This document shows positions 24,386 to 61,173 of a stretch of DNA of 64,000 nucleotides, piece after piece. The stretch comes from Candidatus Peribacteria bacterium (GTDB lineage Bacteria > Patescibacteriota > Gracilibacteria > UBA1369 > 2-02-FULL-48-14). A model generated the notes under the pieces. The model was not told the DNA's origin. It was given only the letters and a program-made list of their open reading frames with translations, and searched no databases. The position numbers were made by a program, and so were the translations under genes. The stretch covers positions 17,190 through 81,189 of the forward strand of contig CALRGE010000005.1 of NCBI GenBank assembly GCA_943357175.1, written 5' to 3'. Positions within the stretch are counted from its first letter, which is position 1; each line of letters starts with the position of its first letter.

Positions 24386-24529
24386 ATGAAACGGTTAACA
24401 GACAATACAGATAAACTAGATTCATCCATTGAAAGAATGGATATGCTATTAAGTCGAATAGACCCAAAACTACTTGCAAGTTTAGAAGAACAACTGTACG
24501 GCAAACTATACATTTCACAACCATCTTAA
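24386..24529 (+). CDS. Small hypothetical protein, 47 aa (not in ORF track)
   Basis: MKRLTDNTDKLDSSIERMDMLLSRIDPKLLASLEEQLYGKLYISQPS; TATACT 6 nt before ATG. Confidence 0.55.
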   Translation: MKRLTDNTDKLDSSIERMDMLLSRIDPKLLASLEEQLYGKLYISQPS

Positions 24530-24569
24530 CCTGCAAAAATCTGTGCACGTGCGGGAATGTATATTTAAA

Positions 24570-24681
24570 CGTACAGTTCGGAATCCCACGCATGAGGACA
24601 TGTAGTTTGGGTTTTTGAAGGACCGTAATCCCAGATTAAAAAAGAAGAGATCATGATCTCTCCTTTTTTAATTCCAGGTCC
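24570..24681. repeat. Dispersed structured repeat, copy A (includes 38-bp near-palindrome that may terminate glnA)
   Basis: ATTAAAAAAGAAGAGATCA|TGATCTCTCCTTTTTTAAT at 24635-24672; 24624-24677 matches 59357-59410 at 40/54 ungapped. Confidence 0.7.
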
Positions 24682-24694
24682 GAAAAAATACAAA

Positions 24695-26116
24695 TTACAT
24701 GTCCAAATATCTATCCACTTCCCACTGGCTTACATAAGTTCTGTATGAATTCCACTCAGCCATTTTTGCTTCGTAGAAATGATTGAAGAAATGTTCGCCC
24801 AAAGCGCTTCGCAAAACTTCATCATCGCGGAAGGCATCAATCGCTTCTTTCAAAGTTCCGGCAACAGAAGTAACTTTCAACTTTTTCATTTCCTTTGGAG
24901 TCAATTCCCAAATGTTATCTTCAATTGGAGCAGGAGCAACCATTCCCTTTTTAATTCCATCAATTCCAGCTGCAAGCATAACCGCAAAAGTGAGGTATGG
25001 GTTAGAAGCAGGATCTGGGCATCGAAGTTCACAACGAGTTGCCCTTGGAGCAGTGTGAGGAGTAACTCGAGGAATTCTAATTAGAGCAGATCTATTTCTC
25101 TGGCCCCAAGCAACGTTTACAGGTGCTTCGTAACCCACAACAAGTCGTTTGTAAGAGTTTATTGTTGGGTTCATAATCGCGTTCATAGCTTTGATATGCA
25201 CCATTTGACCTGCAATAAAACTCTTCGCTGTTGTTGAAAGTCCGTAAAGACCATCTTTGTCGTAGAATTTATTTAGACCGTCTTCAAGACCGGCAAGTGA
25301 CTGGTGAACATGCATTCCACTTCCGTTAATTCCAAAAATCGGTTTTGGCATGAAAGTTGCCTGAAGTCCCATTCTTTGAGATATAGCCTTCAAAGTTAAT
25401 TTGAAAGAAATTGCATTGTCGGCAGTTGCTAAAGCATCACCGTATCTGAAATTAATTTCGTGCTGACCTGCAGCAACTTCATGGTGAAGCGCTTCAACCT
25501 CAATTCCCATCTCATCAAGTGCTAAACTCATCGTTCTTCTAATTTCAAGAGCAAGATCTGTAGTCTGATCAAAGTAACCAGCACCATCATGTGGATTCGG
25601 ACCAAATGTTCCATCTTCATTCTTCTTGAACAAAAAGAATTCCAACTCAGGACCAGTATTGAAGCTATAACCAAGCTTCTTGATTTCTGCGAGCTGTTTT
25701 TTGAGAATCTGGCGTGGATCACCCTCAAAAGCCTCTCCGTCTGGAAGGAAAACGTCGCAAATTAATCTTGCTGTTACATCATCTCCATTTTTAGTCCAAG
25801 GTAGAATACAAAATGTATTCAAGTCAGGTTTTAAATACATATCTGACTCTGTAATTCTTGTGAAACCTTCAATTGAAGATCCGTCGAACCAAACATTATT
25901 ATCCATTGCCTCTTCAAGTTTATGAGCTGGAATTGTTACAGCTTTCAAAACACCAAGAATATCTGTGAATTGCATATCCACAAATTGAACTCCGTTTTCT
26001 TTTGCCATTTCAAGAACCATTTCTTTTGTTACCCCGGTTCGAGGGAATTTTTTGTGCTCTCTTCGCATAGCGCGAATTGAGTCTGTCTGGACTGCGCTTT
26101 GTGTGGCGGTTGTCAT
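24695..26116 (-). CDS. glnA: Glutamine synthetase type I
   Basis: FDGSSIEGF, HHEVAAGQHE, FMPKP, NGSGMH, GYEAP and ELRCPDP motifs. Confidence 0.96.
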   Translation of the reverse strand: MTTATQSAVQTDSIRAMRREHKKFPRTGVTKEMVLEMAKENGVQFVDMQFTDILGVLKAVTIPAHKLEEAMDNNVWFDGSSIEGFTRITESDMYLKPDLNTFCILPWTKNGDDVTARLICDVFLPDGEAFEGDPRQILKKQLAEIKKLGYSFNTGPELEFFLFKKNEDGTFGPNPHDGAGYFDQTTDLALEIRRTMSLALDEMGIEVEALHHEVAAGQHEINFRYGDALATADNAISFKLTLKAISQRMGLQATFMPKPIFGINGSGMHVHQSLAGLEDGLNKFYDKDGLYGLSTTAKSFIAGQMVHIKAMNAIMNPTINSYKRLVVGYEAPVNVAWGQRNRSALIRIPRVTPHTAPRATRCELRCPDPASNPYLTFAVMLAAGIDGIKKGMVAPAPIEDNIWELTPKEMKKLKVTSVAGTLKEAIDAFRDDEVLRSALGEHFFNHFYEAKMAEWNSYRTYVSQWEVDRYLDM

Positions 26117-31536: not shown

Positions 31537-31638
31537 CCCGTCGACGGGAAATAGAAGCTCCTCGCGACAAATCAGTTTTATTTCTTAATATGCCGCCGGC
31601 GGCACTTTTTCAGGTTAGGAACTGCACCCGGGTGCAGT
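31537..31638. repeat. Cluster of three perfect GC-rich palindromes
   Basis: CCCGTCGACGGG (31537-31548), TGCCGCCGGCGGCA (31591-31604), ACTGCACCCGGGTGCAGT (31621-31638). Confidence 0.85.
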
Positions 31639-31684
31639 CTGCTTAAATCTGGCGCAGAAGTACTGCCTTCGTTATACTGTCGAC

Positions 31685-34875: not shown

Positions 34876-34988
34876 GATGACACTAAAACTACTCAAATCC
34901 CTTATCGTGACTATGTCACGATAACAACCTGATGAGAATTCTAAAACTAAAAATTTCTTCCCTGGTTAACGTGACAATGTCACGATAA
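34876..34988. repeat. Two degenerate tandem units, each ending in a 23-bp CGTGAC-N3-GTCACG inverted repeat
   Basis: TTATCGTGACTATGTCACGATAA (34902-34924) and TTAACGTGACAATGTCACGATAA (34966-34988), each preceded by GATGA...CTAAAACTA. Confidence 0.85.
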
Positions 34989-57277: not shown

Positions 57278-57305
57278 CTTAGTATTGCTCACCTTCGGTG
57301 AGTGA

Positions 57306-59224
<1,919 letters not shown>

Positions 59225-59244
59225 AAGATTGGGGTTACAGAAAT

Positions 59245-59271
59245 CTAGCACTCGCTATTATGCAGTGCTAA
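59245..59271 (-). promoter_or_regulatory. CIRCE element (HrcA operator)
   Basis: TTAGCACTG-N9-GAGTGCTAG versus consensus TTAGCACTC-N9-GAGTGCTAA; overlaps TTGACT...CATAAT promoter. Confidence 0.9.
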
Positions 59272-59296
59272 TTTTTAGAGTCAAGAGGAATTACTT

Positions 59297-59438
59297 TCAA
59301 CTATACGATTTCTTCGTACAGTTGATTAACCGAATGAGCTATGGAGTTTTACGAAACGTAATTAAAGGATATAAAAATAGAGAGCATGCTCTCTATTTTT
59401 ATAATCCCAGTGTAGTAAAACTCCATAGCTCATTCGGT
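59297..59438. repeat. Dispersed structured repeat, copy B (nested inverted repeats, MITE-like)
   Basis: Perfect 24-bp inverted repeats 59329-59352/59415-59438 enclose a perfect 34-bp palindrome 59370-59403; extra hairpin 59297-59325. Confidence 0.85.
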
Positions 59439-59439
59439 A

Positions 59440-60969
59440 TCATTCCGCAAAAGCCTCAATTCTCAACTCTCTCACAACATCCACTTTAATTTTTCCTGGA
59501 TATTGAAGATCTTTTTCAATCTTTCGTGCGATTTCATGAGAAAGTTTGATCGCGCGTAAGTCATCTAATTTTTCAGGGTTAACAAAGACTCGTAGTTCTC
59601 TACCGGCTTGAACTGCGAAAGCTTTTTCAACACCATCAAAACTCAATGCCAATTTTTCAATTTCTCCAAGACGCTTAATGAAACTTTCAAGATTATCTTT
59701 ATCAACTCCTGGTCTTGAAACTGAAATCAAATTTGCAACTTGAATAATTTTTGCCTCAATTGACTTAGCCTCCACATCACCTTCATTCGCCTCAACACAG
59801 TGAAGCAACTCCTCACTCATTCCAAATTTTTTCAAAATATCACGACCGATTGCTGCGTGTTTTCCATGAACTTCATGATCTACAGCTTTTCCAATATCAT
59901 GCAAAAGTCCTGCTTTCTTACAAAGCTCCACATTCGCTCCCATCATTCCTGCAATTTCAGCTGCGAGGAACCCAACTTCCATAGAATGCTTCAATACATT
60001 TTGACCATAAGCAATTCTAAATTTCAACCTTCCCAAAATCTTAATCAAGTTTGGAGGAAGCCCAGCAACACCAACTTCATAAGCGGCTTTTTCTCCAAGC
60101 TCCTTTATAAGAACATTCACTTCTTCCTTTACCTTTATACCCATTTCCTCAATTCGGGCAGGGTGAATTCTTCCGTCTTCAATCAGACGTTCAAGAATAA
60201 TCTTAGCCATGTATCGACGAATCGGATCAAAACAAGAAATCACAATTGATCCAGGTGTATCATCAACAATCACATCAACTCCCGTAACAGTTTCAAAAGC
60301 ATTGATATTTCGGCCTTCTCTACCAATAATTCTTCCCTTCAAATCATCAGAAGGAAGATTCACCAAGGTTGTAGTTGATTCAACGGTTGTCTCAGATGCA
60401 TAACGCTGAATTGCGTCCGCAAGAATTTCTCTAGCCTTGCCCTCTGATTCATCCTTGATTTCCTTTTCAAGTTTTTTTGCATACTCAATCAGTTCATCTT
60501 TAGATTCCTCTTCAACCTGTTTAAATAGAATTTGTTTAGCTTCTTCCTTATTAAGTTGAGCAATTTCCTTCAATTTCTCTTCCTGTTTTAAGAAGACTTT
60601 TTCAGCCTCTTCTTTTTTCTTCTTTGCGTCCTCAATATCAGATTCAAGTTTCTCTTTTAACTTTTCGGAATTGTCCATTTTCGAATCGAGCGATTGCTCT
60701 TTTCTTATAAGTCTTTCCTCCGATTCCTCAATTTTCTTCCTTCTTATACGCTCTTCATTCCTAGCCTCTTCTTGCAACTTTATCATCTCAGCCTTTGCCT
60801 TGTGTAGAATATCAGCTGCCTTTGTGTTTGCCTCCTGCAATGCTTTCTCCTGTTCCTTACGTTTTTTTATATCTTCATCTTTGAGCTGGCCGTTTCTGTA
60901 AACGAAACCGATTCCACCTCCAAGACCAAAACCAAGAACGAGTAGAAGCACTTGTGTAATAGTGCTCAT
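59440..60969 (-). CDS. rny: Ribonuclease Y
   Basis: N-terminal TM, coiled coil, KH (KGRIIGREGRNI), LLHDIGK and AGRELRV. Confidence 0.93.
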   Translation of the reverse strand: MSTITQVLLLVLGFGLGGGIGFVYRNGQLKDEDIKKRKEQEKALQEANTKAADILHKAKAEMIKLQEEARNEERIRRKKIEESEERLIRKEQSLDSKMDNSEKLKEKLESDIEDAKKKKEEAEKVFLKQEEKLKEIAQLNKEEAKQILFKQVEEESKDELIEYAKKLEKEIKDESEGKAREILADAIQRYASETTVESTTTLVNLPSDDLKGRIIGREGRNINAFETVTGVDVIVDDTPGSIVISCFDPIRRYMAKIILERLIEDGRIHPARIEEMGIKVKEEVNVLIKELGEKAAYEVGVAGLPPNLIKILGRLKFRIAYGQNVLKHSMEVGFLAAEIAGMMGANVELCKKAGLLHDIGKAVDHEVHGKHAAIGRDILKKFGMSEELLHCVEANEGDVEAKSIEAKIIQVANLISVSRPGVDKDNLESFIKRLGEIEKLALSFDGVEKAFAVQAGRELRVFVNPEKLDDLRAIKLSHEIARKIEKDLQYPGKIKVDVVRELRIEAFAE

Positions 60970-61173
60970 GTTTAATGTTGTTATAACCAGAATACAAAAA
61001 AGAGAACCGGCTTAGGTCGGTTTTTTCAGATTTGAGAGTGAAAAAATTGAATTTTCCATGATTTTCTCTTTGAATTCGGTCGCAATTTATAAAAGATCTG
61101 AACGCAATTTAACAAAGCAAAGTCCGCTTGGCAAGAATTATCTTTGCGGCTAAAGTTTCCGAGTAATAAAAAA

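Follow-up and report, generated by a model that had tools for sequence, protein, structure and literature searches.

The window analysed here is a 64,000-nt stretch of the Candidatus Peribacteria genome G000 (C5:17190–81189), a genome of 1.23 Mb in 20 contigs with ∼38% G+C. Two structured palindromes, named copy 1 and copy 2, occur in it, each located just 3′ of a minus-strand gene. Copy 1 follows glnA, the gene for glutamine synthetase (24695..26116, stop codon at 24695–24697), taken from the list of open reading frames (ORFs) and from Pfam matches to Gln-synt_C (5.2e-128) and Gln-synt_N (1.7e-32). Copy 2 follows rny, the gene for RNase Y (59440..60969, stop codon at 59440–59442), which carries the Pfam domains RNase_Y_N, KH_1 and HD. 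A sequence-only reading of the window had described both as loopless palindromes with a CATG axis, placed behind minus-strand genes and alike without gaps at 40 of 54 positions (24624–24677 against 59357–59410). The match is reproduced exactly, the gene context is as described, and the axes lie at 24652–24655 and 59385–59388. The element itself is larger than these coordinates, with copy 1 reaching 24704 in the last glnA codons.

Copy 1 is a nested hairpin of ∼109 nt (24596..24704, minus strand, as are all parts of both copies), delimited by its RNA fold and its score with the covariance model R2. Its outer stem, found by inverted-repeat search and folding, pairs a 5′ strand at 24684..24704, which overlaps the final two or three glnA codons together with the stop codon, with a 3′ strand at 24596..24616, the complement of the glnA end, and comprises 21 bp with three mismatches. 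The inner hairpin with its A6/T6 tracts (24632..24676) bears the CATG apex. A 3′ internal loop and a short middle helix (24620..24631, from alignments A1 and A3 and the fold) contain the motif CGTAAT (plus strand, 24624–24629). On the far side of copy 1 ends a small plus-strand ORF (stop at 24529), and the element lies between convergent genes. Over 171 nt, the orthologous glnA 3′ region of G002 shares 94% of its bases with that of G000, and the outer stem in G002 is a perfect 19 bp.

Copy 2 (∼110 nt, 59329..59438, from the fold and the R2 score) is located between rny and the groES promoter. Its outer stem is a perfect 24-bp inverted repeat, with a 5′ strand (59415..59438) that starts 1–2 nt past the rny stop codon and a 3′ strand (59329..59352) defined by inverted-repeat search and folding. 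The inner hairpin (59366..59408) is a 17-bp perfect palindrome about the CATG apex, and the asymmetric 3′ internal loop (59353..59365, from the alignments and the fold) carries CGTAAT (plus strand, 59357–59362). In the orthologous rny copy of G003, the inner 72 nt are 94% identical and the outer stem has 21 bp instead of 24; the two stems differ in sequence and both are perfect. Collectively, the rny copies of G000 and G003 and the glnA copy of G002 indicate that perfect outer stems are kept though their sequence differs. In contigs of four sequencing runs, the unitigs break at the palindrome and no joints are seen; two more distant populations fail to align across 59295–59452. Among the runs listed for 57300–61000, none is an RNA run.

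The gene-strand RNA of copy 1 (24594–24705) has a predicted folding energy of −42.5 kcal/mol (z = −6.6, with 0 of 200 shuffles as good) and that of copy 2 (59328–59439) of −60.2 kcal/mol (z = −13.4); on the opposite, non-gene strand the z values are −9.3 and −15.8, respectively. The R2 scores are 65.6 bits for copy 1 and 70.2 bits for copy 2, both copies being part of the R2 training set. No separate terminator follows either copy, and the inner stems of both have A6/T6 tracts. A simple terminator scan flags copy 2 on the minus strand and leaves copy 1 unflagged, though T6 follows its stem.

Similarity outside the stems had also been proposed, and only a part of it belongs to the element. CGTAAT is a family motif; CGTACAGTT, CG.ATGAG and ATG.AGTTT are not. 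Near copy 2, CGTACAGTT is part of the groES upstream region, which is kept in G002 where the element is absent, and the copy 1 orthologue in G002 has TGTACATTT at the place matching CGTACAGTT. The other two motifs are in or beside the locus-specific outer arms.

Likeness of the two copies

In an nhmmer search of the 1.23-Mb genome, copies 1 and 2 are reciprocal best non-self matches (E = 0.0026 and 1.9e-4), and the next match has E ≥ 2.5. Palindromes inflate nhmmer scores, and an empirical null was therefore added, made of the genome's 1,051 other hairpins (perfect stem ≥7 bp, loop 0–8 nt), compared over 60 nt about each axis in both orientations. Centred on their axes, the two copies agree at 41/60 positions when oriented alike and at 33/60 when oriented oppositely; the closest of the 1,051 other hairpins reaches 28/60, and hairpins with A/T tracts average 18–19/60. 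The pair ranks second among 55,420 pairs of A/T-tract hairpins, and the runner-up hairpin of copy 2 (C1:84654) is a further member of the family.

These values bear on the simplest alternative, namely that the window holds two independent bidirectional terminators, alike merely as hairpins with an A-tract, a stem and a T-tract. Such tracts do flank both stems, and blastn-short at E ≤ 50 gives no match of copy 1 to copy 2 among the matches listed for contig C5. Nevertheless, the alternative is refuted by the reciprocal nhmmer matches, by the gap between 41/60 and at most 28/60 for every other hairpin of the genome, by flank motifs, an apex and an outer-stem plan common to dozens of members elsewhere, and by a class-wide sample in which the model finds almost nothing in ∼130 other genomes; we regard it as highly improbable. 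CATG as a general palindrome centre in this genome is ruled out as well: among 24 perfect loopless palindromes with at least 9 bp per arm, CATG is central in 4 and CCGG in 6.

Family architecture, covariation and distribution

Copies 1 and 2 are true members of a previously undescribed palindromic, partly mobile repeat family. Covariance model R1 was built from 8 sequences, and R2 is the second model. Across the family, the unit is a nested rod of about 105–130 nt, the window copies having ∼110 nt. In the reading direction of the upstream gene, its parts are an outer arm, CTGG(G/A)AGCG or CTGGAATT, a purine-rich tract, a variable stem and CATG; the return stem comes next, then a pyrimidine tract, some further bases, (T)TTACG(G) and the second outer arm. 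The conserved motifs occupy a short 5′ loop (CTGGGAGCG or CTGG(G/A)A) and a longer 3′ loop (UUUACG or (U)UUACG). The outer stem is locus-specific and the middle of the inner stem freely variable; the centre is conserved.

The apex and the outer stem define the class. Among 58 R1 matches examined, the apex is CATG in 46, CGTG in 1 and another sequence in 11. Directly next to the core, an outer inverted repeat of ≥10 bp is present in 43 of the 47 members with CATG or CGTG, in none of the 11 matches with other apices, and in 9 of 1000 random windows from the same loci. In these 43, the repeats are perfect in 25, reach at least 14 bp in 41, and have a median length of 19 bp (range 11–27). As the CATG apex is a feature separate from the outer stem, the co-occurrence of the two marks a class distinct from ordinary terminators.

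The argument for selection on structure had rested on symmetric, seemingly compensatory differences between the two window copies. This argument does not hold: in a perfect palindrome any difference in one arm is mirrored in the other by construction, and two copies alone thus show no covariation. The claim itself survives on other grounds, since covariation is strong in alignment A3, which comprises 47 members on the gene's strand scored over 19 pairs. Paired cells make up 92.7%, against 69.1% in shuffles; 226 cells are changed on both sides, against 66.5 expected; and the covariation score is 0.666, against 0.222 in shuffles and at most 0.229 in slid controls. None of 500 shuffles reaches the observed double changes or the observed score, and all these figures, like the counts above, overstate the support because related genomes and sequences are not independent. 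In the basal helix, two pairs are predominantly G·U on the sense strand (29/47 and 31/47), corresponding to A·C on the other strand.

The family is restricted in distribution. R1 has matches in 22 of 61 relatives, and R2 in 24 of the 151 genomes sampled from the order, namely in 18/22 of the window's own family, 2/9 of family f13, 2/16 of f15, 1/22 of f2 and none of the remaining sampled families. In the class-wide sample, 4 of 151 genomes have R2 matches, three of them from the window's family, with one weak match outside that family; this sample doubles as a specificity control, with almost nothing found in ∼130 other genomes of the class. Similar hairpins occur in other genera behind other genes. 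G000 has four distinct copies, the two in the window and two on another contig (C1:84623–84690 and C1:38037–38104). Copy number is patchy: R2 matches number 26 in G010, 24 in G074, 19 in G007 and 16 in G024, and 0 in three genomes of the genus of G010; a match does not equal a copy here, as palindromic copies often score on both strands.

No named family had been recognized beforehand, and the searches agree. Rfam 15 gives 0 matches in the whole window at the gathering score. At both loci with E ≤ 1, it gives only the two miRNA hairpins mir-553 (score 25.6 bits, threshold 82) and MIR7504 (score 24.3, threshold 83), with E-values of 0.15 and 0.74. In titles and the opening parts of abstracts on Peregrinibacteria and Patescibacteria terminators, CPR MITEs and intergenic palindromic repeats, no such element is mentioned. 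The view that this is a dispersed REP/MITE-like or 3′-UTR RNA element, instead of two independent terminators, is borne out by dozens of members in relatives.

Placement behind stop codons and signs of mobility

Family members lie preferentially behind genes. In the first round, 25 of 27 matches had a gene end within 39 nt of one fixed side of the model. In the CATG class, a same-strand ORF ends within 45 nt upstream in 30 of 47 members, a convergent ORF lies that close in 8, and both apply in 6. An upstream ORF and an outer stem are both present in 28 cases, and in 25 of them the distance between the stop codon and the beginning of the outer arm is at most 12 nt. A variety of unrelated genes precede the element, among them rny, glnA, ftsZ, secDF, groEL, an htrA-like gene, the alanine dehydrogenase gene and genes for S-layer-homology (SLH) proteins and pilin.

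Some loci are especially informative. In G010, the element follows the ftsZ stop codon and is separated by 11 nt from a conventional terminator with A-tract and T-tract; it precedes this terminator and must therefore be transcribed whole, as a 3′ UTR, at that locus. In G019, the ftsZ stop codon is followed after 11 nt by a similar terminator with no element, and G023, whose FtsZ is 96% identical, is also without it. The outer arms of the secDF, ftsZ and glnA copies and of the G003 rny copy include codons. The outer stem is kept even where one strand is coding, which indicates a constraint on pairing, due either to selection on RNA or to correction at the DNA level. G000, G003 and G011 carry the element behind rny; among 65 other rny loci, R2 has a match at the 3′ end in one, a G003-like record (L052). 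A metagenome search with RNase Y yielded 49 loci, the closest 87% identical over a short piece, and no further rny copy of the element.

Such placement is what would be expected of a purely cis-acting RNA signal at mRNA 3′ ends, serving processing or stability, kept gene by gene and itself immobile, with MITE-like units carrying it as cargo. A site for a double-strand-specific RNase, built of a stem, an asymmetric loop and a stem, would be an example. The orientation bias relative to the upstream gene, the anchoring at stop codons, the conserved loop motifs and apex next to free yet compensated stems, and the two G·U pairs confined to the sense strand are all consistent with this possibility. 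The same is true of the ftsZ copy upstream of a conventional terminator and of the secDF copy, which is kept in four genomes of two genera with outer arms that track the differing coding ends. It fits poorly, however, with match counts of 0 and 26 inside one genus, with near-identical copies at unrelated loci, with insertion into a divergent promoter region, with the mixed orientation relative to genes in high-copy genomes, where some copies lie in promoter regions, or with the different, imperfect CATG hairpin that occupies the rny 3′ end in a strain whose RNase Y is 99% identical. As a complete explanation, a cis-acting signal of this kind is unlikely.

The evidence for mobility comes from relatives. 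In G074, ten copies are near-identical over ∼105 nt, their own imperfect terminal repeats included; most differences among them fall on three or four positions in the middle of the stem and are always compensated. At least 33 copies with conserved ends are detectable by blastn in this genome, at 75–98% identity. In G010, two subtypes of the module stand tail to tail in units of ∼304 bp that carry a 15-nt terminal inverted repeat at their ends; this repeat has 7 + 7 matches, bounding units of 169–306 bp. A filled site in G007 holds ∼195 nt of extra sequence, arms included, in the promoter region between divergent genes, at a point that is empty in G020, G015 and G024; this is the sole clean filled/empty locus. 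Conserved terminal inverted repeats thus characterize the composite units of G010 and the units of G074, and solitary copies, the two of the window included, have unique arms. The definition of a MITE (short, without ORF, in many near-identical copies at non-homologous loci) applies in relatives and not in G000 with its four diverged copies; G000 shows no signs of current mobility, and the terminal repeat of G010 is absent from it at ≤1 mismatch.

Other hallmarks of transposition were looked for. No consistent target-site duplication is seen in the flanks of 7 G010 units, and none is evident at the filled G007 site. For an autonomous partner, five genomes were searched; all opposite repeat pairs listed in G010, G024 and G018 are ∼160–310 bp apart and none encloses a gene-sized stretch. 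Linked IS200/IS605 or RAYT genes had been envisaged, and this link is rejected: the Y1 transposase (PF01797) does not track the element, being found in G000 and G024 and absent from the high-copy genomes G010, G007 and G074, and the single G000 gene is on contig C13, away from all four copies (C5 and C1). In the search for empty sites, the glnA 3′ end of G003 holds only a degenerate half-element. For the two C1 copies of G000, rearrangement has affected C1:38037 in both G002 and G003, and synteny breaks down at C1:84623 in G001 and G003; for the G074 copies, the relatives are too distant.

Possible roles and relation to known systems

We consider it fairly probable that the element is a lineage-restricted MITE/REP-like repeat lodged in 3′ UTRs and that, in G000, it probably serves as a terminator or 3′-end stabilizer. 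Copies 1 and 2 would then be old, diverged and solitary members of a palindromic family of mobile origin. The module would spread, or once have spread, inside non-autonomous repeat units and would be tolerated or selected mainly between the stop codon and the transcript end, where it would be transcribed as part of the 3′ UTR. In G000, the inner hairpins with their A6/T6 tracts are the most likely candidates for factor-independent terminators of glnA and rny; copy 1, located between convergent genes, would terminate in both directions. The outer stem would act as a clamp on the 3′ end of the mRNA. Efficient termination at the inner hairpin would leave the 3′ outer arm untranscribed, and therefore the terminator and clamp roles should not both be strong at the same copy. 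The mixed orientation and the promoter-region copies of the high-copy genomes also count against this reading, as do the unflagged copy 1, a folding energy that does not prefer the sense strand, and the searches that yielded neither a consistent target-site duplication nor an autonomous partner.

The origin of the outer stems invites a reading at the DNA level, in which a recombinase or nuclease recognizes a hairpin or cruciform with a CATG apex and mismatched pairs in DNA that is single-stranded or extruded, and the outer repeats arise from insertion into existing palindromes or from growth and correction of quasi-palindromes by template switching. It would explain why the outer repeats are mostly perfect (25/43) even with one arm coding, and why near-identical copies within one genome, G074, show compensated differences. 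The invariant apex tetranucleotide, the several layers of inverted repeats and the tail-to-tail pairs point in the same direction, as does folding energy, which favours neither RNA strand, be it among the listed members or for the two window copies. The flanking host sequences in G074 form extra short inverted repeats somewhat more often (at least 7 matches in 3/10, against 4/90 mismatched flank pairs), but this signal is weak (mean 4.6 matches against 3.1, n = 10). Moreover, the searches yielded no candidate enzyme, since the Y1 transposase is distributed as described above, and no empty site with a pre-existing palindrome was found among the loci compared. Arms copied from nearby host sequence are rejected: a third, host copy of the arm is found at 1 of 41 elements (L108), and the mean best match is 0.628, against 0.622 in controls. 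Finally, the orientation bias relative to genes is explained more easily at the RNA level. Altogether, a purely DNA-level element appears doubtful to us.

Individual features can be read in both ways. Either selection for an RNA clamp or processing site or DNA-level correction of quasi-palindromes accounts for the constraint on pairing, and the sense-strand G·U pairs would be just as compatible with a hairpin in single-stranded DNA or with inheritance from a master copy. A more novel possibility is a new type of stop-codon-anchored repeat, with a conserved core that moves between loci and an outer stem formed separately at every locus as the inverted end of the upstream gene, yielding a made-to-measure 3′ clamp, and with a putative reader of the CATG apex and asymmetric loop. 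The outer stem would arise through outgrowth of the palindrome by template switching or in a structure-guided insertion step. We hold this possibility to be rather improbable as it stands.

To our knowledge, CPR bacteria, with their very small genomes, are generally thought to be repeat-poor, and the signals that end or stabilize their transcripts are essentially unstudied. In this context, the family provides a covariance model and ∼100 example loci of a structured element marking gene 3′ ends in one lineage, and it reaches 20–30 or more copies in genomes of 1.2–1.4 Mb. Its pattern is unusual, with a conserved core and a locus-tailored outer stem that is often perfect and may extend into the final codons. 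Should a DNA process generate the outer stems, the family would be a natural system for studying palindrome growth; should they be selected in RNA, it would represent a new 3′-UTR motif. For annotation, the hairpins break assembly graphs and can be mistaken for simple terminators.

Several known systems come close to the element. REP/BIME sequences of enterobacteria and pseudomonads, associated with RAYT, are short extragenic palindromes present in many copies, typically in intercistronic DNA or 3′ untranslated regions; they are credited with stabilizing upstream mRNA, and their copy number varies between relatives. A REP is ∼35 nt long and is defined as an imperfect palindrome of 20–40 nt with a conserved 5′ GTAG. 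The Peribacteria element resembles them as a multicopy palindrome at gene 3′ ends with a copy number varying between relatives. In contrast to them, it is nested and ∼110 nt long (105–130 nt across the family), with locus-specific, stop-anchored outer stems and an invariant CATG apex; it has the motifs CTGGGAGCG and UUUACG instead of GTAG, and it shows no link to Y1/RAYT, the gene missing from three high-copy genomes. Correia elements of Neisseria and ERIC/IRU elements of enterobacteria are MITE-like imperfect palindromes of 100–150 bp, non-autonomous, located in transcribed intergenic DNA, with reported roles as terminators or as sites of RNase processing. Size and the long rod-like fold are shared with the Peribacteria element. 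However, terminal repeats are conserved in those families, whereas the Peribacteria element is conserved at its centre, has unique arms in solitary copies and shows no consistent target-site duplication at the sites inspected, the families being compared here by description.

Intrinsic bidirectional terminators share the A-tract, stem and T-tract and the position at gene ends, and copy 2, though not copy 1, passes the terminator scan. The Peribacteria element adds conserved apex and loop motifs and an outer stem with no T-tract behind it; in many relatives, the elements have only CUUUCUUCC after the stem, and the G010 element precedes a conventional terminator. Integron attC sites are imperfect palindromes of 57–141 bp defined by structure and placed behind the stop codons of diverse genes in one orientation, with conserved outer core sites and a variable centre. 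Position behind the stop codons of diverse genes is common to both, but in the Peribacteria element the centre is conserved, the outer arms are locus-specific, and the upstream genes are housekeeping genes in conserved places. RNase III signals of the phage T7 type consist of a lower stem, an asymmetric internal loop and an upper stem, and cleavage leaves a protective 3′ hairpin. Their layout at message ends is similar, which suggests a possible way of working, not a homologous family. Collectively, the element may be likened to REP, Correia and ERIC sequences as a probably transcribed palindrome at gene ends and, by the features compared, appears to be a member of none of them.

Repeat units in relatives and the transposase gene

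In two relatives, the nested palindromic hairpin with its CATG apex forms the core of repeated units. In one of these genomes (G010, loci L137–L146), the units are composite repeats of ∼304 bp, with the terminal inverted repeat CGTGAATCTTGAAAC at both bounds; in the other (G074, loci L147–L156), the repeat measures ∼105 nt and is present in at least 33 copies. The genome containing the window (G000) carries a single Y1 transposase gene of the IS200/RAYT type (C13:42214–42573, outside the window; PF01797, 118.5 bits), with an open frame of 161 aa. None of the four copies of the element shares its contig.

At the locus orthologous to the G000 copy at C1:38037, the element is truncated in two relatives, G002 (contig C17) and G003 (contig C2) (loci L163–L164). 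There, the truncated element is followed by a promoter-like stretch common to both genomes and a G+C-rich, structured-looking segment that G000 does not have at C1:38037. In G113, the intergenic region orthologous to G074 locus L150 holds an unrelated hairpin (L158), with a stem of ∼18 bp and a 16-nt loop. Long hairpins specific to a single locus may therefore be common 3′ of genes in the order, even without the CATG-apex module.

Other dispersed palindromes

A second palindrome family is represented in the window by a half-decayed copy, AAAATCTGTGC-N4-GCACAGATTTT (24536–24557), directly after the stop of a plus-strand ORF. Exact matches to its 17-mer are numerous in the relatives G005, G016 and G030, where they frequently lie at the ends of contigs, and intact copies in other genomes are located 3′ of rny or close to the CATG-apex element.

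Further palindromes are scattered through G000. CCGG-centred palindromes (ACTGCACCCGGGTGCAGT and similar) occur in the window at ∼31610–31650 (C5:48818) and at no fewer than nine more sites on several contigs, with CAGGTTAG / CTAACCTG as frequent flanking sequences. Others, of the form TTATCGTGAC-N3-GTCACGATAA, are found at window positions 34902 and 34966 (C5:52091 and 52155) and, outside it, at C2:1477, C2:1541, C3:277, C8:45600, C10:33292 and C17:4447, spaced 64 nt apart as pairs in two cases. At three sites CAACCTGATG(A/G)G comes next, and GAACCTGATAAG at C3:277. An Rfam search of the window gave no matches at gathering score. Finally, one terminator hairpin, AAAAGGACCTCATAAGGGTCCTTTT, is present outside the window in three copies with similar flanks (C1:925, C3:88070 and C9:37521), the C1 and C3 copies being identical at 50 of 60 positions about the axis.

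The groES–groEL control region

Beside the element copy 3′ of rny, a sigma-70-like promoter on the minus strand (TTGACT-16-CATAAT, 59284–59257) overlaps an operator, TAGCACTC-N9-CAGTGCTAA (59247–59273), in front of groES (58949–59251 in the ORF list, with an alternative ATG start at ∼59226) and groEL (57306–58937). This operator region is common to many relatives (query bases 17–51 of the sequence search). By its consensus, the operator is of the CIRCE type.
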